A stretch of 64,000 nt of DNA from Bacteroidaceae bacterium (GTDB lineage: Bacteria; Bacteroidota; Bacteroidia; Bacteroidales; Bacteroidaceae), in NCBI GenBank assembly GCA_017522785.1, contig JAFWYF010000004.1:55480-119479 (forward strand), given 5' to 3'. The notes under the pieces were generated by a model. The model was not told the DNA's origin and ran no database searches. It saw nothing but the letters and a program-made list of their open reading frames with translations. Position numbers and translations under genes: made by a program. Shown one piece after another: positions 17,960 through 27,472 of the stretch; positions within the stretch are counted from its first letter, which is position 1; every line of letters starts with the position of its first letter.

Positions 17960-18760
17960 TTATGCACCTTCAGCCTCCATGAGAGCATCGAGATCCTCGG
18001 GCTCTGCATCGAGTGTCTCTCCCTCAACCTCGGGAGCAACAGCAATATTCAAACCACCCATGAGCGCCTCTTGTGCAGCAACTTCTTCGGGAGTAAGTTC
18101 GCGACCTACACTCTTATCGAGTTTAGTGATGAAACAACATTTAGAGAGAGATTTCAACTGTTCCTCGTTCCATATTCCAAGTGTAGCAGGGTCAATTGCA
18201 CCCTCTTTCATTGCCTTCCACTGCTGATACTGCTGACGACGCACTGCTGTAATTTGTTTAATCTCGGCACCACAAAGTTCAATTACTTTAGGACCCGATT
18301 TTAGATATTTACCATAGGAGAGAGCCTGTAAACCCATGTCGGGCAATGCAGTTGTAGCCGAAGCTGTGAGAACACCGATATTTGCAATATCGAGTACAAT
18401 GTTAGTACCCTGCATGATAGCATTAACCAACTGCCATGTTACTGCACCACGAGTAAGGTAAGCACCCGAAGCATCTTCCATGTGAGCCATCACATAGTCG
18501 GCACCATTCACATCACGCAATGTGTCGGTTTTAAATGTATAGGTGTTCATGCTCTCTGCAACCTTTTGAACATCGTTCCAAACGGTATCACATGTGAGCA
18601 GGTAGAGGTCGAAGTCGGCATTACCGCTAAGTTCGGGCATAACCCACTCATATTTTTTCTTCTCTTTCTTTTTCTTCTCTTTTTTAGAGGCCTCAGCATT
18701 CATTGGAGCCAACATAAGAATTGCAAGCATTGCAACCATTACTTTTGAAAGTGTTTTCAT
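17960..18760 (-). CDS. exported hypothetical protein, Lys-rich N-terminus and acidic C-terminus (operon gene 8)
   Basis: 266 aa. Signal peptide ends NA-EAS. This is followed by KKEKKKKEKKK, and the C-terminal tail is EVEGETLDAEPEDLDALMEAEGA. Confidence 0.75.
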   Translation of the reverse strand: MKTLSKVMVAMLAILMLAPMNAEASKKEKKKKEKKKYEWVMPELSGNADFDLYLLTCDTVWNDVQKVAESMNTYTFKTDTLRDVNGADYVMAHMEDASGAYLTRGAVTWQLVNAIMQGTNIVLDIANIGVLTASATTALPDMGLQALSYGKYLKSGPKVIELCGAEIKQITAVRRQQYQQWKAMKEGAIDPATLGIWNEEQLKSLSKCCFITKLDKSVGRELTPEEVAAQEALMGGLNIAVAPEVEGETLDAEPEDLDALMEAEGA

Positions 18761-18804: not shown

Positions 18805-20199
18805 TTATGGAGTAAGCACAACATCGAGTGTTTGTGTTTTATGCTCTACCGGATGCGAACATCCTTCTCCTTGGAAATAGAGATATTTAAAATCTTCGCG
18901 CATTTTTATCGAATATTTACCACCCTGAACTGTACCCACCTTCTTTAGGTTATACTTTTTTACATCCTTTATTTTGCTTATATAAATATTGGAAGCATAG
19001 ATATCCACATCTACAGGGAATATCCATCCTTCGCCTGCAGTAACTGTTCCGCTTATTACAGGATACTCCACTATCGAAGAAGGATGCTGGCCATATTTGT
19101 AATCTATCTCACGCAATAACTTCTTGTAGTACTCCATTTCGGGAAACTCATCTATCAATGTATGCAAGCGCTTACGCTCGAAATTTAGATATTTCCACAC
19201 GTTAGCCGATTCAAAACCCTCTTCGTCTGCCAGCTTGCGCCAACGCTCGTCGGCCTGATTGATAGCATTTGTGTGGTTACGTATCTTCTTGAACTTATTA
19301 GCTTGTATCTGATGAGCATCTTTTTTGTCTATAGGACATTGCAAATGTTTGCTAGCCTTTTCGTATGCATCGGCCACTGACGCAAAGTATGCACTTGTGT
19401 GCTCCTTTTCGTAGCCAGCCTCTTTATTCTGTGCAACAGCAAGCACATCTTCGTATGTCTCGTCGGTAGCCCTTACCACCATGAAGATGTAGGATGTACG
19501 ACCAACTAGTTCTTTTTGTTCAATTTGAACACTGCTAAAGTCGGGCGAACTGATTTTGAATGCTACATTACCTGTTATGTCTTTACTGCTTTTTGTCTTG
19601 GGAGCAAGATTAAAGACAATAGCATAATCTTTTTGCTCACCCACCATTTCGGCCGAAGCTTTAAAGTTACAGCCGGTTAATGTAACAGGTTTACCATTTT
19701 CTATGCATGTAATGCCATTACAAGCAATTGTAAGATTTGTAAAAGCCGACATAAATGTAACCTTTGCAGCGTTTGCGTATGGGTAGACAGCATCGGCCTC
19801 GCGATTTATTGCAACATTAATTTTCTCGTCGTATGAGCCCTCATAAACCTTTCCTTTATACATTACGAGTGGTACAGTCTCTTGCCCCATAGGCAAACGT
19901 AACTGTAGCTGTGTCTTTAGAAAGTCATCGTCATAATCCTCGGGGAATGTATAGTTTATAGTATACTTATAGCGTCCGTTACTTTCGATGCTCTTTGTAC
20001 CTTTTTCTATACCCACACTATGCGACATTATCAGATTGTCGCAATTAGATGTTACAATGATGATAGCCTCGTCAACCCCTGCTGTTTGAGTTTTACTCTC
20101 TGTTGGAGGCACAAGCGTCGTGTTGTCGTCTTGTGCCGTTGTCTTCACTACACCAAGAAACGACAAAAGCGATATAAAGATTATCTTTTTCAATTTCAT
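18805..20199 (-). CDS. exported hypothetical protein (operon gene 7)
   Basis: 464 aa. Signal peptide ends TA-QDD. The C-terminal roughly 90 aa (VISGTVTAGEGWIFPVDVDIY...) resemble a CarboxypepD_reg-like beta-sandwich (tentative). Confidence 0.75.
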   Translation of the reverse strand: MKLKKIIFISLLSFLGVVKTTAQDDNTTLVPPTESKTQTAGVDEAIIIVTSNCDNLIMSHSVGIEKGTKSIESNGRYKYTINYTFPEDYDDDFLKTQLQLRLPMGQETVPLVMYKGKVYEGSYDEKINVAINREADAVYPYANAAKVTFMSAFTNLTIACNGITCIENGKPVTLTGCNFKASAEMVGEQKDYAIVFNLAPKTKSSKDITGNVAFKISSPDFSSVQIEQKELVGRTSYIFMVVRATDETYEDVLAVAQNKEAGYEKEHTSAYFASVADAYEKASKHLQCPIDKKDAHQIQANKFKKIRNHTNAINQADERWRKLADEEGFESANVWKYLNFERKRLHTLIDEFPEMEYYKKLLREIDYKYGQHPSSIVEYPVISGTVTAGEGWIFPVDVDIYASNIYISKIKDVKKYNLKKVGTVQGGKYSIKMREDFKYLYFQGEGCSHPVEHKTQTLDVVLTP

Positions 20200-20210
20200 A
20201 GTTCTTTACA

Positions 20211-21209
20211 TTATAGGTCGATAACGAAATCTCCGGGTGTAAAAATTTCCTCTTTTGCTATTGGCTGAGTCTTGTTCTCGTCCATCCAATAGGGTTGCCA
20301 TGTACGAACATGAATCTGCACATTGTCTTTGTCGCGGAAATCCCACAAAAGGAACAAATAGCCATCGTCGCTGTAGCCACGGCTGTTTGAATATTTTTGA
20401 CGAACAGTTACACCATAGAAACCCTCCATTAGAGGATTAGGGTGTTTAACAACCTTCACATCCTCGAACTGCACATTTATCCAACTGTTGCTGGCAAAAC
20501 TTCTTTTGAGGTTTGTGATATACTCCTGTTTATTTTGTTTCTTGTATGTTACCTTGTTGTATGAGATACCCATTCCATCGGTCTTTTTAACCTTTGTTAC
20601 TGTACCTGTGATGATAAGCGCATCCTCGCTGAAGATATTCTCTAGGAAAACAATATCCTTTTCGTTATACGCTGTACGGAACTGCTCCACGTATGACAAT
20701 ATCTGCTGACGACGGCTGACCTCGGTTACATTTTTTCCCTTTTTCATCACATTCTGATAGACATTTGTGCTAAGTGTGAAATTGAAACGGGTTATTTTAC
20801 CTGTTGCATCGAAATTTATAACTGCCTCTTGATACTCATCGTCGAGTGTTTCACCATTAGGTTTTATCATCAACGGAATTTGACGTACCTGATAAGTGCT
20901 TCCCACAGACAAGCAAGATTGCACGACCTCGCTGTCATCGCAATAGAAATGAGCATTCTCCCAAAGAGCAGAAAGACCACTTACAGCACTCTCGGCAAGG
21001 CCAAGATTAACCAAGTTCAATGCACGATTTTCGTTATATGCGGCATTTATTTCTGTTAGCAAGCGACTGGCCGATTTCTCCATTTTTACTTTAAGGGCAA
21101 TATCGTACAAGCCATCAACAATCTCTAGTTTAACCCCCTCTTGTGCATTAATGGTAACAATCGACAAACAGCAGACTGCAACCATTAGCCAACGTAATAA
21201 ATTTCTCAT
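20211..21209 (-). CDS. exported hypothetical protein, possible NTF2/SnoaL-like C-terminal half (operon gene 6)
   Basis: 332 aa. Signal peptide ends NA-QEG. QQILSYVEQFRTAYNEKDIVFLENIFSEDALIITG resembles the start of an NTF2-like fold (tentative). Confidence 0.75.
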   Translation of the reverse strand: MRNLLRWLMVAVCCLSIVTINAQEGVKLEIVDGLYDIALKVKMEKSASRLLTEINAAYNENRALNLVNLGLAESAVSGLSALWENAHFYCDDSEVVQSCLSVGSTYQVRQIPLMIKPNGETLDDEYQEAVINFDATGKITRFNFTLSTNVYQNVMKKGKNVTEVSRRQQILSYVEQFRTAYNEKDIVFLENIFSEDALIITGTVTKVKKTDGMGISYNKVTYKKQNKQEYITNLKRSFASNSWINVQFEDVKVVKHPNPLMEGFYGVTVRQKYSNSRGYSDDGYLFLLWDFRDKDNVQIHVRTWQPYWMDENKTQPIAKEEIFTPGDFVIDL

Positions 21210-22059: not shown

Positions 22060-23046
22060 TTACTTGTCGTCGGATGCCTCGTTGAATTCGTCGAAAAGTG
22101 CCGAAATATTATGTGTAGGAACAAACAGGTTAAGGTCGCCTGTTACAGTGCCCTTTCTATCTTTAAAAACAGTGTATGGAACTTCGACATTCATCACATG
22201 ATTGTATTTAAATATGTTGTTTACAGCAAAGAATGCCACTTGAATTGAGTTGGTACCCATCTCCTCTATACCAATATATATATTACAACCTAGTACTTTA
22301 AGATAGGAGAGCCATAATTTCAAAGGTAAAGTACGCTGTTCCTTTTTTAATCCATATTTGCGCACCACCAACTCCAATGACACCTCACCGGGGGAAAGTT
22401 CCGAGAGCAAAAGATTATGACAACTCTCCAGCGGATGGTCGGCATCGAAAACCAACTGTAAGCCAGCACCACTGTTTATTAGATAGAGGTTACTGTTTAT
22501 ATCGTCTATCTGATAGGCACCACCCGGTTTCATATAATAGTTGTCGTGTAGCGGCTTCAGTTCCGATATTTCGGTAGTCAAAGTATCGACTATTCGGTAG
22601 GAGTAGTTATCCAACCCAACAAACAGGTTGTCTTCGAGCTGTTTCAGGTTCTGCCCTGTCATTAATTGACACGATGCCGGGAAAGATATCTCAATAATAG
22701 GGTTCTTGGCATTGAAGACAGCCAAACTATACCTGTTGTTCTCCTCGGCAAATGCCAACGAACTGCTATCATCTATTCGTGCCAGATTTTCAATGCGCCC
22801 TTTTGTTATGCGCACATCATCGCGCTCCATACGCGACGACTGTTCTGTAGCATTCATACCTTGCAACTCAGCCAGATAGCGTTCGACAAAATCGAACACA
22901 ACGGATATTGCCGGAATATCTTTAGATGCCTTTTGCGCCTCATCGCGTAACCTACCGCCCAAAACTCCATTATGCTGCCCCCACACAGATAGTGGGAGTA
23001 GCATAATGAAAATAGAGCAATATACTATTTTAAATAGCTTGTTCAC
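22060..23046 (-). CDS. exported hypothetical protein (operon gene 4)
   Basis: 328 aa. Signal peptide ends WG-QHN. No family recognised. Confidence 0.75.
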   Translation of the reverse strand: MNKLFKIVYCSIFIMLLPLSVWGQHNGVLGGRLRDEAQKASKDIPAISVVFDFVERYLAELQGMNATEQSSRMERDDVRITKGRIENLARIDDSSSLAFAEENNRYSLAVFNAKNPIIEISFPASCQLMTGQNLKQLEDNLFVGLDNYSYRIVDTLTTEISELKPLHDNYYMKPGGAYQIDDINSNLYLINSGAGLQLVFDADHPLESCHNLLLSELSPGEVSLELVVRKYGLKKEQRTLPLKLWLSYLKVLGCNIYIGIEEMGTNSIQVAFFAVNNIFKYNHVMNVEVPYTVFKDRKGTVTGDLNLFVPTHNISALFDEFNEASDDK

Positions 23047-23052
23047 AGGGTC

Positions 23053-23688
23053 TTAAGGAATGATTGTCTCTTTATTACCATCTTTTTTGTGCCATGTACC
23101 GGTTACAAGATGTCCATCTTCAAATATTCCGATAACCTTTTCACCCGGTTGTGCTGTACGCTTTTTAATATCGCGTTGTTCAATGATATGTGTCTCTTTG
23201 AATGTGAGTACGCCATTGTCGTCGTTCATCTTGCCATTTTTCATGCGACCTTTGTACACTGCATAACCCAAATCTTTGGTAACAACCAAATTTGGGTCGG
23301 GTGCAGGAGCCGGTGTAGGCTCTGGTTCCGGGGCAGGTGCTGGTGCAGGAGCTGGGATAGGCTCGGGGGCAGGAACAGGCTCAGGGGCAGGTGCTGGTGC
23401 AGGTTGAACTTTCTTTGGCTCTTTTGCCTTTTTATCCGATTCTGGCATAAAGAACATTGCCGCACCGCCGGCTGCAATTGCAAGAACAGCAATAATTGCT
23501 ATTATTAATCCTTTATTACCACCTTTCTTGGGAGGAGGACACTCACGCAATGCCTTTCCACACTCGGCACAAACAAATTCCTTGCGTGATGGAATCTCTT
23601 GTACCTCTTTTGCTTTTGCCTTTGAACAACCATCGTTCAAACACATTCCATATCTAAAACGAACTCTGTCGTTACTACTACTTGCCAT
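23053..23688 (-). CDS. bitopic membrane protein: zinc ribbon, TM helix, (Pro-X)19 spacer, small C-terminal globular domain (operon gene 3)
   Basis: 211 aa. Cysteines C16-x4-C21 ... C40-x2-C43; TM at about 61-81 (LIIAIIAVLAIAAGGAAMFFM). Residues 96-132 alternate Pro strictly at every second position. The C-terminal YKGRMKNGKMNDDNGVLTF ... GIFEDGHLVTGTW is MORN-like. Confidence 0.8.
   Translation of the reverse strand: MASSSNDRVRFRYGMCLNDGCSKAKAKEVQEIPSRKEFVCAECGKALRECPPPKKGGNKGLIIAIIAVLAIAAGGAAMFFMPESDKKAKEPKKVQPAPAPAPEPVPAPEPIPAPAPAPAPEPEPTPAPAPDPNLVVTKDLGYAVYKGRMKNGKMNDDNGVLTFKETHIIEQRDIKKRTAQPGEKVIGIFEDGHLVTGTWHKKDGNKETIIP
23293..23403 (-). repeat. imperfect tandem GC-rich repeat encoding the (Pro-X)19 spacer
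   Basis: Reiterated ggtgcagg/ggtgctgg/ggctcggg units are visible on the plus strand. They translate as PAPAPAPEPVPAPEPIPAPAPAPAPEPEPTPAPAPDP. Confidence 0.8.
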
Positions 23689-23724
23689 TTTTTATTATTT
23701 TTAAATTGTTATCTATTTATGTTA

Positions 23725-26700
23725 TTACATCATTGGAGGGGGAGGAGGTGTAGGACCACCTGCAGGAGGCAACGGTGGGAAACCGGGTGCTGCAGCAGGA
23801 GGTGCAAACAATGGTTGCAATGCAGGAACCTGTCCGGCAGGCATCCATGCGGGCATACCGTCCATCCAAACTGTGCTTTGTGCTGTCAATTGACCACCCT
23901 GTACCATTTGTTTACACTGCTCATAGGTATAAGGACCATAGTTCTGACCTGCTACAGAGAGGTAGAGACTAATCTTTGGCTCTTCAGCATGAGGTGGAGG
24001 GGGAGGAGGTGTGCTTAAGCCACCGGGAGGTGGAGGAGGCACAGCCATTCCCATTGTAGGTTGCTGAACTTGCGCAGCGGGTTGCATAGTAGCTTGTGCG
24101 GCCTTTGCAGCAACCTCTTCGGCATTTTCTACAGCAAACAATGATGGTAATTGACTACCGTCGCCCTCACTATGTAACAAAATAGAATTGCTTAAGTCTG
24201 TAGCGGGATTTCCTGTGCATAGGAACTTTTCGTAACGTTCTTTATAAGGAGTCATCCACTCGATACCACGTACAGGGAAGCAGTATGATACTGTGATAAT
24301 TGAAAGCTCGTCTTTACGTGGGCTCTTGCGATTTACAGTGATTGTGGTACGTGCTGTACTCTGATTGAACGAATTTTTAAATGCTGCCTCAAGTTTATCT
24401 GCAAATTTCTTCAGGCCCTCATTTTCATCGGGAGAAGGAATAGAAACGAGTATAGCCTTTTTGTTAATACTTGCAGGGTTTGTAGGACTTAGATTTCCTT
24501 CGTTATTACGCAAGTGCAACTGTATCTGGTCGTTGTTCAAACGAAGATATACACCACTTTGACCTACTATCTTAGAAGCAAAGGCTTTGATATCATCATC
24601 GGTCTTAAGCTTTTGTTGTAACTGTGTTAGGATATTCAGGCCCAATACCTTATTGTCGCTATCGGCCTTTTCATTGTGTTTGGTCTTTACAATTTCTGAC
24701 AACTTAACATCAAATGCATCTTTTATATCATCGATGCTGATATTGTTTGCCAAATTACCAAAGTTCAAGAAATCGCCAACAGGTAGTATAGATTCACGCA
24801 ATTGACGTGCAATATTAGGCATATCTACTTTGTCAATCTTAAGTTCTTTCTCAAACTCATCCATTGCCTCCTCTTCGCTAACCTCAATGATTGCACCCTT
24901 CATATCCTCGAGACCTTTGTTCACCTTCTTCTGTGCTGTTACCAAACGCTCGGTTTCATCGATAGCATCATTGATTTTTTGACCAAATGAAGAGATATCG
25001 GCATCCATTTTACCTATTTCAACAAATACTTTTGCTAGAAGTTTCTTTGCAAAATCCCAACCACAAAGCATTGTCTTCGATGTATAGTAATCGGTTAAAA
25101 TACCCTGATGATCGGCATAGCGACGTGCACCAACACCAACCATGCGTTGCAATATACCCAAACGGCTCCACTCCTCGACATTTACTTTGCGGTCCTCTTC
25201 GCAAGCCTCGTAATTGGTTTTTTCCTCTTTTTCTTTTACTTCGAGCTCTTCGCGCATCTCGCCCAAACGCTCAAGCAGAAGTTTTGAAACTTTCTGCAAC
25301 TCAACAATAGAAACATCACCCAATTTCCATTTCTCGAACAGTTCGACCTCAATTGTGTGGCGTATCTCACGTGCTATTTCGGGAATTACACGTTCTTTAC
25401 CTTGGAAGAATGCTTCTACACCCTCTTCTCTGAAATGCTTGTTATAGAACTCGCTCATTATAGTATCGAGTTCATTGAGCGGACAATCGGCCTTCTTTGC
25501 ATCTTCGGCATAGCCAATTGCTTTATCGTGCCAATAATCGTTAAAGCCGGGATAATCAGCATCTGATTCAAGCACTTTAGCCTCCATTGTCAAATGTAGG
25601 TCGTCGAGCATCCATTTTGCGAGATTTTCTTTGTTGAAATACTCTTTGCGATAGTCTTTGTTGCGTTCTTCATCAACATAGCCAAGATTCTCTCGCCAAT
25701 TATTATATTTAAATTGATAGAGTATACTCTCGCCCACTGTATATGTGATATGTTTGAGTACACGAAGCTCAGGATACATCACACGTTTAATTCCGAAAGA
25801 ATTGATTTTCTTGGTACGGGCAACAGGGATACGTCCGTCTGCACCGGCATTTGCAGCCTCATCATACTCCAATGCAAAATCATCCATATTCTCGAAATTG
25901 TATGCACGTATGATATCGCTATTAACCTGATCCTCTTCGTTTATAAAGAATATACGGGCAAATACATAGTCGCTGACAATTTTAGGAAGTTCTGTGAGAG
26001 AATTTATTGTTAAACCATTCTCATTCACATTACTATAAACAGTGAGACCATCTGCAACACCCTTTACGCGGTCGCTATAATATTTAGCTTGTCCACCACC
26101 TGTTACATCGCAAGGGAACCATCGACCAGCCTGCAAAGCATTCAACTCGTTCATTGCAGCGTAACCATTCTGGTAGTAACGACCTTGGTCCATATCGGCT
26201 TTGGGAAGATTCATTTCGGGAATCATTGCATAAACCGAAATTTTTGCATTTGGGAATGTTTTACGTGTTTGTACAACAACGTCGACAATTGAACCCGAAC
26301 CTGTACCACCACAAAGACCGGCAAAGATATGTATATTGGTACTTGTAGCATCGGCAGAAATAGCCTCACAACGTGCATAGGCATCACGAAGGCTATTTAC
26401 ATAACCTACAGCATTTGCAGCAAACAAAAGACGACCAGCACGACGTTTTTGTCCTGCGGCTTGACCCAACGAGCCAATAGCCGACCTTACTGCCGATACA
26501 TTATCTACTATTCCCTTTACAGAAGGATAGTTGTTTATGTGGTCGAGAATATGCTCAACATCAACAGCTTTGATATTTAAAAATTCGTTATTGGTAAACG
26601 AAGCATCCTGTCCCATTACACGAAAGTCGGGACGTGCTCTACCATCTTTTGGCATCATTTCGTCGGTTGAATCGACATACAAAAGAGCAACTGGCAATTG

Positions 26701-26823
26701 CTTGCGCTCGTCAGCTGTTGGGAACTCCTCGAACATACGCATCTTGAATGCACGCAAGATTTTACCACCTGTACCTCCTAGACCAACGAGGATGTGGTTG
26801 CTTTTACAAAAATTAGTCTCCAT
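23725..26823 (-). CDS. tubulin/FtsZ-superfamily GTPase-like protein with long helical region and C-terminal GYF-like domain (operon gene 2)
   Basis: 1032 aa. VGLGGTGGK (T1-like, nt 26761-26784); GSLGQAAGQKRRAGR (FtsZ T3-like GAGxxPxxG, nt 26431-26475); GGTGSG (tubulin signature, nt 26293-26310, checked against the nucleotides). The middle region is rich in charged heptads. The C-terminus has a W/GP/W GYF_2-like pattern between polyproline runs. Confidence 0.85.
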   Translation of the reverse strand: METNFCKSNHILVGLGGTGGKILRAFKMRMFEEFPTADERKQLPVALLYVDSTDEMMPKDGRARPDFRVMGQDASFTNNEFLNIKAVDVEHILDHINNYPSVKGIVDNVSAVRSAIGSLGQAAGQKRRAGRLLFAANAVGYVNSLRDAYARCEAISADATSTNIHIFAGLCGGTGSGSIVDVVVQTRKTFPNAKISVYAMIPEMNLPKADMDQGRYYQNGYAAMNELNALQAGRWFPCDVTGGGQAKYYSDRVKGVADGLTVYSNVNENGLTINSLTELPKIVSDYVFARIFFINEEDQVNSDIIRAYNFENMDDFALEYDEAANAGADGRIPVARTKKINSFGIKRVMYPELRVLKHITYTVGESILYQFKYNNWRENLGYVDEERNKDYRKEYFNKENLAKWMLDDLHLTMEAKVLESDADYPGFNDYWHDKAIGYAEDAKKADCPLNELDTIMSEFYNKHFREEGVEAFFQGKERVIPEIAREIRHTIEVELFEKWKLGDVSIVELQKVSKLLLERLGEMREELEVKEKEEKTNYEACEEDRKVNVEEWSRLGILQRMVGVGARRYADHQGILTDYYTSKTMLCGWDFAKKLLAKVFVEIGKMDADISSFGQKINDAIDETERLVTAQKKVNKGLEDMKGAIIEVSEEEAMDEFEKELKIDKVDMPNIARQLRESILPVGDFLNFGNLANNISIDDIKDAFDVKLSEIVKTKHNEKADSDNKVLGLNILTQLQQKLKTDDDIKAFASKIVGQSGVYLRLNNDQIQLHLRNNEGNLSPTNPASINKKAILVSIPSPDENEGLKKFADKLEAAFKNSFNQSTARTTITVNRKSPRKDELSIITVSYCFPVRGIEWMTPYKERYEKFLCTGNPATDLSNSILLHSEGDGSQLPSLFAVENAEEVAAKAAQATMQPAAQVQQPTMGMAVPPPPPGGLSTPPPPPPHAEEPKISLYLSVAGQNYGPYTYEQCKQMVQGGQLTAQSTVWMDGMPAWMPAGQVPALQPLFAPPAAAPGFPPLPPAGGPTPPPPPMM
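23734..23751 (-). repeat. 18-nt direct repeat copy A (encodes TPPPPP at the extreme C-terminus)
   Basis: tggagggggaggaggtgt is identical to the copy at 23995-24012. The copies are 261 nt (87 codons) apart and in the same frame. Confidence 0.9.
23995..24012 (-). repeat. 18-nt direct repeat copy B (encodes TPPPPP just before the GYF-like domain)
   Basis: tggagggggaggaggtgt is identical to the copy at 23734-23751. Confidence 0.9.
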
Positions 26824-26845: not shown

Positions 26846-27472
26846 TTATCTTGTTCTTCTATGTGAATGGCCACTTACACGAGGACGCGAACGGTCGCCA
26901 CCCACAGGTTGGCGTCGGCCGGCACCTTCGCGGGTTCTACCACCAGAGCCATTGTTTATTGATATTGTTTTAATTGCTATGATTGCCGAAACCACTACAA
27001 AGCCTAAGCACCAGAGCAAACGACGAAATATGAAATGGCGCATAAAACTGCGTATTTCGTCTCCTATTGCCGCTGGGAGTGTTTCGACAGTGTATCCCAT
27101 AAAATAGCCTGAACCAAAATAGTTTTCGAATATTGGAAATTCATCTATGAGCAACTGAATTACCTCTTCGCTTTCGGCAATTGAAACAGAGGAATCCAAT
27201 GACACATAGCGCATATCAAGAATTTCCTGAGTTTTTTCCTCTACAATATCGGTAAAACTGATTATTTTTATTGCTCCACAAATCATTATACACTGTACGG
27301 AAAGCAAAACGAAGAGTACAAAGCCCATGATGTAGGTTATGATTGTAAACTCTGCATTCTTCCACCATCCTTTAATGGCAAAGAAAAACAGACACATACA
27401 TACAGCGGCAATAAGTATTCCCCAAAAGAGGCTGCTTATTGAAAATTGAAGTATTTCCCAAAGTGCATTCAT
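26846..27472 (-). CDS. 3-TM membrane protein with Arg/Gly-rich C-terminal tail (operon gene 1)
   Basis: 208 aa with hydrophobic segments at about 14-33, 42-68 and 150-170. The tail is GSGGRTREGAGRRQPVGGDRSRPRVSGHSHRRTR. Confidence 0.75.
   Translation of the reverse strand: MNALWEILQFSISSLFWGILIAAVCMCLFFFAIKGWWKNAEFTIITYIMGFVLFVLLSVQCIMICGAIKIISFTDIVEEKTQEILDMRYVSLDSSVSIAESEEVIQLLIDEFPIFENYFGSGYFMGYTVETLPAAIGDEIRSFMRHFIFRRLLWCLGFVVVSAIIAIKTISINNGSGGRTREGAGRRQPVGGDRSRPRVSGHSHRRTR

Follow-up and report, generated by a model that had tools for sequence, protein, structure and literature searches.

The FtsZl1 family of tubulin-like proteins, equivalent to Tubulin_2, was defined in 2010 by Makarova and Koonin, and its operons were described as holding many lineage-specific membrane or exported proteins, often with protein kinases (PMC2875224). 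This branch has had no function and no partner assigned since its definition. The locus considered here raises the question of how such a protein could be connected to the cell envelope. It lies in a window of 64,000 nucleotides (the whole stretch of DNA that was analyzed) from a member of the Bacteroidaceae, where a small ORF at 23053-23688 sits between a tubulin-like gene and a run of genes for exported proteins. The ORF and its product are called the ZnR gene and the ZnR protein below. The main features of the operon are as follows, with cellular locations as predicted:

26846..27472, (-) strand: first operon gene, encoding a 208-aa protein with three hydrophobic segments
23725..26823, (-) strand: Tubulin_2/FtsZl1 gene, upstream of the ZnR gene, encoding 1032 aa with a C-terminal GYF_2 domain and poly-Pro tails
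23053..23688, (-) strand: ZnR coding sequence, encoding a 211-aa bitopic protein, stop codon included
23539..23661, (-) strand: Cys4 zinc-ribbon region, cytoplasmic, residues 10-50, with C16-x4-C21 ... C40-x2-C43, plus C50
23512..23541, (-) strand: juxtamembrane motif C-P-P-P-K-K-G-G-N-K, residues 50-59
23446..23511, (-) strand: single transmembrane (TM) helix, residues 60-81, from a hydropathy scan
23404..23445, (-) strand: charged segment PESDKKAKEPKKVQ that opens the periplasmic spacer, residues 82-95
23293..23403, (-) strand: (Pro-X)19 tract, residues 96-132, encoded by GC-rich, imperfectly repeated DNA, hypervariable among strains
23056..23289, (-) strand: MORN-like beta-hairpin domain, periplasmic, residues 134-211
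22060..23046, (-) strand: g328, exported, with its start 6 nt after the ZnR stop codon
21229..22023, (-) strand: g264, exported, with a signal-peptide-like N-terminus
20211..21209, (-) strand: g332, exported, tandem NTF2-like, the most conserved member of the cassette
18805-20199, (-) strand: g464, exported, with a signal-peptide-like N-terminus
17960-18760, (-) strand: g266, exported, with a signal-peptide-like N-terminus

The upstream neighbor of the ZnR gene is a bona fide member of the FtsZl1 family, with matches to PF13809 (E=2.6e-45) and PF14237 (E=5.2e-14). The gap between the two genes is 36 nt, within the same operon. A counterpart of the 208-aa first gene is kept upstream of the tubulin-like gene in six public loci (L001-L006), and its product has no MotA/ExbB or other Pfam match. 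The membrane proteins of the operon include one of 208 aa and one of 487 aa.

The ZnR gene encodes a real, conserved, and unannotated membrane protein, most likely an adaptor. Searches recovered 144 homologs of the protein at E<=1e-3, and the start and stop positions are kept among them. In an alignment of 47 full-length homologs, C16, C21, C40, and C43 are invariant and C50 is at least 90% conserved. These five are the complete set of cysteines in the window copy, at exactly the positions the first-pass annotation had listed, and the single hydrophobic segment that it placed at 61-81 was found at 60-81. The two CxnC knuckles of a Cys4 zinc ribbon are present in the alignment and accompany beta strands at 11-16, 30-33, and 46-50 in the AF2 model, where the ribbon has a moderate pLDDT of 63-70. 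The ribbon matches no family in a Pfam scan, and zinc binding is assumed from the Cys pattern. The sequence RECPPPKK is near-invariant, with P51, P52, K54, and K55 invariant or nearly so, and the AF2 model places a helix at 59-72 in the TM region. Conservation across the 47 sequences is split, with the C-terminal G/Y/A pattern kept and the linker between the TM helix and the C-terminal domain unalignable. The family is without annotation, and what its members conserve is the Cys4 ribbon, together with the TM helix and the MORN-like domain.

The position of the gene is also conserved. The first-pass annotation had named a lack of conservation beside tubulin-like genes elsewhere as the outcome that would tell against a bridging role. 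Thirty tubulin loci, including the window, were examined in detail, and the position downstream of the Tubulin_2 gene was readable in 28; the ZnR gene is directly downstream in all 28. In the other two (L029 and L039), an ORF scan left the downstream partner unread, and genome searches place a match there in both. Same-strand adjacency holds in each of the six public loci, which come from Bacteroidaceae, Prevotella, and Paraprevotella, and again in two genomes (G130 and G067) of an order-wide sample. Among 201 sampled Bacteroidaceae genomes, the two genes are adjacent in all 22 that hold both. This strict adjacency persists over a deep Tubulin_2 tree with branch lengths of >1. Three Tubulin_2 loci of the vWA type from the same order (L010-L012) are without the ZnR gene.

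The same association is seen when genomes are compared by content. Full-length ZnR-type matches are all in Tubulin_2-positive genomes. In the six A1-only genomes, which have no Tubulin_2, the match is confined to the C-terminal domain, and in four of them it belongs to a kinase-type ORF of 496-552 aa. Of the five Tubulin_2-only genomes, one has just a weak fragment and the rest have another subtype. The ZnR family has no real homolog in 400 sampled genomes of the phylum from outside the order. Within the family Bacteroidaceae the distribution is patchy, with the operon carried by 27 of 201 genomes and by 3 of 10 in the same genus, which marks it as an accessory operon.

The last ~78 residues of the ZnR protein are modeled as compact beta hairpins with an AF2 pLDDT of >90. 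The best structural matches from Foldseek are the MORN proteins 7jtk_S (rmsd 1.4 A over 64 columns, probability 1.0), junctophilin-2 (7rxe, probability 0.97), and 9e5c. The Foldseek E-values are weak, as the whole 211-aa model was used as the query. The modeled domain superposes on the solved MORN hairpin arrays 7jtk_S and 7rxe, in keeping with the hairpin arrays of MORN-repeat proteins such as junctophilin, MORN1/4, and the radial-spoke protein RSP1. It differs from these proteins in having ~3 hairpins, in being predicted to be extracytoplasmic, and in lacking a Pfam MORN match in the window copy, where PF02493, the model of the 23-residue YxGxWxxGxxxGxG repeat, was not reached even at E<=10 with the C-terminal 79 aa. 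Proteins with a homologous domain do reach PF02493 (P0126 at 4.6e-8, P0232 at 5.3e-5, and L015 at 0.008), and two others (P0113 and P0119) have a precomputed match. A sequence search of the PDB gave low-complexity or marginal matches only (FliL, ZipA, and MORN1; E 0.01-0.6). The domain is thus best described as MORN-like by its predicted fold and sub-threshold by sequence, and the MORN-like G/Y/K pattern noted earlier for the last ~75 residues is in line with that fold.

The wider use of this domain was revealed by the search strategy. A word-based search with a kinase-type C-terminus found only itself; it was an exhaustive profile search with the C-terminal domain, yielding 3,585 cluster representatives (564 at E<=1e-10), that revealed the architectures. 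Among the best 148 domain-profile matches, 85 have a zinc ribbon and a TM helix, and 9 more have a ribbon with a weaker hydrophobic segment. Other heads appear in the longer representatives that were scanned, namely Pkinase+TM in 7 of 10, TIR+TM+Big_2 in P0180, and TPR/Sel1+TM in P0126 and P0229. Ten loci without a tubulin gene were also examined, all with a MORN-like C-terminus. Their heads are a kinase in five (L015, L017, L019, L020, and L021), TIR in L046, TPR in L048, a double ribbon with TPR in L018, and a lipoprotein in L022 and L023.

The genes that follow the domain vary much less than the heads that precede it. In the window, all five ORFs downstream of the ZnR gene have a basic-hydrophobic, signal-peptide-like N-terminus. 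Homologs of g328 follow the MORN-like gene in the six public tubulin loci. A g332 homolog follows it in all 10 tubulin-less loci (E 1e-47 to 1e-89), a g328 homolog does so in 8 of the 10, and homologs of g264 and of PEGA/g464 are often present too, making for strict co-occurrence of the MORN-like domain with the g332 and g328 families. The counterparts of g464 in L015 and L046 carry a PEGA domain. The AF2 model of g332 shows two NTF2-like cones (pLDDT 87), and among solved structures it is best matched by the NTF2 part of the Bdellovibrio LD-carboxypeptidase Bd1075 (E=5.7e-7), a modeled likeness that gives a weak hint, at most, of a tie to the cell wall. Because the cassette follows the domain behind varied heads, the periplasmic module is the constant part and the cytoplasmic head is the variable one. 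Head variety and cassette co-occurrence together indicate that the C-terminus is periplasmic and tied to the exported cassette, and that the N-terminus is a swappable head.

An N-in/C-out topology for the ZnR protein is supported by four independent lines of inference. First, among the 47 homologs, the N-side flank of the TM helix holds 198 K+R, compared with 72 on the C-side, and the mean net charges are +2.9 and -1.8. The window copy alone is neutral by this measure, with 5 K/R on each side, so its topology rests on the family evidence. Second, Big_2 Ig domains are found within the linkers of relatives. Third, the same C-terminal domain is found behind Pkinase+TM or TIR+TM heads, which are necessarily cytoplasmic. 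Fourth, in L022 and L023, which lack any cytoplasmic portion, the domain comes after Big_2 in a protein that starts with a lipoprotein signal. All four lines agree with the periplasmic C-side originally proposed for this protein.

Taken together, the ZnR protein is probably a RodZ-like bitopic inner-membrane adaptor that couples a tubulin-like polymer to a periplasmic cassette. The Cys4 ribbon and the juxtamembrane CPPPKK would face the cytoplasm, beside the tubulin-like GTPase encoded immediately upstream. There the ribbon, and possibly the CPPP motif as well, would contact the tubulin-like protein. One helix would cross the inner membrane, and the spacer would hold the MORN-like domain out in the periplasm, where it may associate with the exported proteins encoded downstream, with g328 and g332 relatives as the foremost candidates. 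In this way the periplasmic cassette would be coupled to where the cytoplasmic polymer lies or how it is assembled, much as RodZ couples MreB to machinery in the periplasm. Contact on either side is predicted from gene adjacency, and the direction in which coupling runs and the biological role of the system are inferences too. The bridge that the first-pass annotation proposed between the tubulin-like protein and the exported proteins has gained comparative support from the adjacency found in every readable locus, with the contacts themselves predicted.

RodZ is reportedly the bitopic partner of MreB (Bendezu et al. 2009; van den Ent et al. 2010). It opens with a small filament-binding domain in the cytoplasm and a basic stretch beside the membrane. 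Past its one TM helix, an unstructured, Pro/Ser-rich periplasmic linker that varies in length leads to a small beta-rich C-terminal domain, also in the periplasm. The ZnR protein has the same layout and, by its predicted contact with a filament, would follow the same logic. The parts themselves are different: where RodZ has a helix-turn-helix head, the ZnR protein has a Cys4 zinc ribbon, and at its C-terminus a MORN-like domain takes the place of DUF4115. The partner also differs, being from the tubulin superfamily for the ZnR protein and from the actin superfamily for RodZ. There is no sequence or domain homology between the two, and neither the RodZ HTH nor DUF4115 was matched in the ZnR protein by Pfam. 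The ZnR protein can therefore be considered a RodZ analog by architecture only.

The same layout could also carry information in the other direction. The ZnR protein might be an outside-in receptor, with an ectodomain that reports the state of the cassette or an insult to the envelope and a ribbon that switches the polymerization or GTPase activity of the tubulin-like protein. This is the strongest of the alternatives, and it is still judged unlikely. The same ectodomain and cassette occur with Ser/Thr kinase heads (five of the tubulin-less loci and 7 of the 10 long representatives) and with a TIR head (P0180/L046), and kinase and TIR domains are signaling or effector domains. The patchy occurrence of the operon also fits a receptor. 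Between structural and signal coupling, the kinase and TIR paralogs would favor signaling. The receptor reading is weakened by the lipoprotein versions, which have no output domain, and by the ribbon itself, whose ~45 residues offer no evident way to relay a switch across one helix. The operon proteins also gave no match to a defense model in PADLOC besides one weak low-complexity match (PD-T4-6, E=0.0011), which falls on the TM helix and linker.

The lipoprotein versions bear on a simpler explanation. The ZnR protein could merely tether the cassette, with the ribbon as a generic cap and the adjacency to Tubulin_2 as a product of co-inheritance. An N-terminal zinc ribbon followed by a TM helix is a common, generic architecture. 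L022 and L023 are periplasmic modules without any cytoplasmic head and appear to do the same job, which leaves room for a core function that needs no zinc ribbon, and anchoring alone can plausibly suffice in these paralogs. A purely passive anchor is nonetheless rather improbable for the ZnR protein. Little or no change is seen at the four Cys residues and their flanks, in contrast to a freely drifting linker. Full-length ZnR-type proteins are confined to genomes with Tubulin_2 and stay directly downstream of it (28/28) across a deep tree, and tubulin-less loci use other heads.

The feature of the window copy that most readily invites a different assignment is the proline tract. Pro occupies every second position through 19 dipeptides, and residues 96-132 correspond exactly to 23293-23403. 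The GC content is 0.694 in the tract, compared with 0.453 in the ZnR gene and 0.417 in the window. According to TRF, 23322-23403 is an imperfect repeat with a period of 18 (4.6 copies, 65% matches), and 23333-23355 is a period-12 sub-repeat. The Pro-X run and the GC-rich imperfect tandem repeat described in the first-pass annotation are thus both present. The rise of a polyproline II helix is 0.31 nm per residue, and if the tract adopts this form, its 37 residues would span ~11 nm; the reach of the whole 56-residue linker is estimated at up to about 17 nm.

Across the family, the spacer takes many other forms. Among 130 members with a ribbon and TM helix, the linker is 40-225 aa long (median 74) with a median Pro content of 8%. 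An alternating-Pro run of at least 17, the extended Pro-rich spacer of the TonB type, is found only in P0001 (the ZnR protein) and P0002, which is 96% identical to it. The linkers of other lineages are acidic, or coiled-coil-like (DSIKAAQ...LKDSL), or contain 1-2 Big_2 Ig domains, as in relatives from Bacteroides and Paraprevotella; examples of the Big_2 type are P0049, P0033, P0074, and L006. Since other lineages use other linkers, the Pro-X rod is one local solution to the spacer and not a defining feature, and a rigid rod does not hold up as a property of the family.

The tract is also unstable among close relatives. In one of them (L016), the flanks are identical to those of the window and the tract differs by a 9-nt indel and by many substitutions. 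Four further contigs (X7, X11, X13, and X17), each from an independent metagenome study of gut or faecal samples, are all shorter by a net 9 nt and differ at 18-22 positions by substitution across 751 nt, with at least two different substitution patterns. In these contigs, ~22 of the ~28 variable positions are inside 23289-23403, making the tract the hypervariable part of the ZnR gene. The excess of between-strain substitutions in the tract is roughly 20-fold. The change in length that was seen amounts to three codons only, with the Pro-X alternation retained. An earlier suggestion that the repetitive DNA could allow the spacer to vary is consistent with this indel and substitution excess, and the proline rod appears to be a strain-level spacer variant.

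These findings bear directly on the TonB-like architecture originally ascribed to this protein. The resemblance consists of an N-terminal anchor, a comparably long run of alternating X-Pro (about 10 nm), and a small periplasmic domain at the C-terminus. A TonB-type transducer would use the rod to transmit movement driven by the proton motive force from an inner-membrane motor to an outer-membrane partner. The sequence matches that point this way concern the poly-Pro region of TonB only and are sub-threshold. PF16031 scored 17 bits (E=0.007) where 33 are required, and NF008084 scored 27 bits where 315 are required. TonB_C (PF03544), the domain that binds TonB boxes, was not matched by Pfam with the whole protein or with the C-terminal 79 aa at E<=10, and neither MotA_ExbB nor ExbD, which stand for the MotA/TolQ-type stator that works with TonB, was matched in the nine operon proteins by Pfam or NCBIfam. 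The C-terminal domain is MORN-like, the ZnR protein has an extra cytoplasmic zinc ribbon, and the rod, a strain-level trait, is missing from nearly all relatives. Membership in the TonB family was rejected on the lack of TonB_C and of ExbB/ExbD in the operon. The resemblance is superficial, and a role as a TonB-type transducer is highly improbable.

A second proline-based connection concerns the tubulin-like partner. GYF domains bind proline-rich peptides, and C[PLA]PP is found before the TM helix in all 13 loci where the tubulin-like partner bears a GYF domain. In loci without GYF, PPP is found in 0 of 14 and PP in 2 of 14. The GYF-bearing tubulins form one clade with a single gain, and its sister clade already has PAPP/PAPK; with GYF gained once, the correlation between GYF and CPPP has no statistical weight. 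The ZnR gene is adjacent to the tubulin-like gene without GYF as well, so docking by GYF is not the general link. As ligands for GYF, the poly-Pro tails that the tubulin-like protein itself carries would serve just as well. Docking of GYF on the CPPP motif is possibly part of the contact and is kept as a secondary hypothesis. The least probable reading of all inverts the topology and makes a cytoplasmic Pro-X tract the ligand of the neighbor's GYF_2 domain; the charge bias, the Big_2 inserts, the kinase- and TIR-TM fusions, and the lipoprotein versions all put the linker and C-terminal domain outside, the alternating-Pro tract is missing from the other 12 ZnR partners in the GYF clade, and the periplasm is an unlikely place for a Cys4 ribbon to keep its zinc.

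The adaptor reading also has to be set against what is described for other partners of the tubulin superfamily. ZipA is a single-pass tether of FtsZ with a long Pro/Gln-rich linker, which makes for a general likeness to the ZnR protein. The topology is opposite, with the linker and FtsZ-binding domain of ZipA in the cytoplasm, and the sequence similarity is a low-complexity match (E=0.64). The FtsZl1 operons described in 2010 center on vWA proteins, typical of most of them, a novel GTPase, and OmpA-like proteins, and the sole Bacteroides caccae example has a different three-gene context (PMC2875224). The gene for a ZnR-TM-MORN-like protein and the g328/g332 cassette are not described there, and vWA was not matched by Pfam in the nine operon proteins of the window. 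A literature search on this operon and on FtsZl1/Tubulin_2 in Bacteroides found no functional study.

Several consequences follow for the study of these elements. The ZnR gene is the best candidate membrane link for one large FtsZl1/Tubulin_2 subfamily in gut and rumen Bacteroidales. Comparative genomics lends the bridging idea good support, and the physical link is predicted. The protein offers a small experimental handle, with 59 cytoplasmic residues and a 78-residue ectodomain. A tempting misannotation is also corrected, as TonB cannot be diagnosed from a TM helix and a long X-Pro tract behind it. The recurrence of the ectodomain and cassette behind kinase, TIR, TPR, and lipoprotein heads represents a modular envelope system that had not been delineated before, and it shows where experiments should look for the core. 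It is conceivable, although unlikely, that the invariant unit is the periplasmic cassette itself (the MORN-like ectodomain, g328, g332, and PEGA-type proteins), wired through one TM helix to interchangeable outputs that include a tubulin-like GTPase (by way of the zinc ribbon), a Ser/Thr kinase, TIR, and TPR/Sel1. The swapping of heads and the patchy, accessory distribution would fit an undescribed envelope-surveillance or conflict system of gut Bacteroidales. If so, the tubulin-like polymer would be an output or effector of that system rather than a housekeeping cytoskeleton.

The g328/g332 cassette, named for two of the exported proteins encoded downstream of the zinc-ribbon (ZnR) gene, is also found behind MORN-like proteins with other N-terminal parts.

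L015:3435-5228 (genome G140), Ser/Thr kinase–TM–linker–MORN-like protein
L046:122-1375, TIR–TM–Big_2–MORN-like protein (P0180)
L022:9812-10531, lipoprotein-signal MORN-like protein
L023:5963-6715, lipoprotein-signal MORN-like protein

The kinase layout recurs at L017, L019, L020, and L021, and at all five loci the kinase-type protein, with its low-complexity or Ig-like linker, precedes the cassette instead of the tubulin and zinc-ribbon pair. The ZnR protein of the window (23056-23688, minus strand) itself has a weak PADLOC match (E=0.0011) to PD-T4-6, a defence protein of the kinase type, and this match is confined to the TM helix and linker (residues 54-127). The P0180 gene is followed by homologues of g328, g264, g332, and PEGA proteins, and its TIR head points to an output of the NADase or immune type for this periplasmic cassette. 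The L022 and L023 proteins lack a cytoplasmic part; their lipoprotein signal (…SSC / …TSC) leads into an acidic segment, which is followed by Big_2 and then by the MORN-like domain. A signal for surface export in Bacteroidetes might be formed by the acidic residues that follow the Cys.

20211-21209, minus strand, g332

The g332 family, for which 4,895 clusters were found at E<=1e-5, is far larger than any other in the operon. The g332 protein is modelled as a tandem NTF2-like protein, and among solved structures it best matches the NTF2 part of Bd1075; this LD-carboxypeptidase acts on peptidoglycan and is involved in cell shape.

23725-24039, minus strand, GYF_2 domain of the tubulin-like protein with the poly-Pro tails that flank it
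23689-23726, 36-nt gap separating the ZnR ORF from the tubulin-like gene

When the GYF_2 region of the window was compared with 28 related loci, GYF_2 and its flanking poly-Pro tails were found to be a single gain within one clade of 13 tubulin loci; in the remaining 15 loci, which share the operon type, the tubulin-like protein has a non-Pro helical tail at its end. The gap is filled by an imperfect tandem repeat with a 9-nt unit (TTTTTATTA x 4.2), composed solely of A and T.

G676:C2:4166-5005, ZnR gene with an in-frame TAA
G629:C20 (L029), tubulin-like ORF split at about 755 aa
G711:C209:9296-10068, tubulin-like fragments interrupted by several stop codons
L025:121-753 (G646, congeneric with the window), very divergent ZnR-type gene

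The operon has apparently decayed in some genomes (G676, G629, and G711), in keeping with frequent loss of an accessory operon. The L025 protein has the pattern C-x5-C...C-x2-C and lacks both the Pro-X tract and CPPP, the juxtamembrane motif of the window protein; the tubulin-like protein paired with it is GYF-less and belongs to a different clade. This locus suggests independent acquisition or replacement of the operon type inside one genus.
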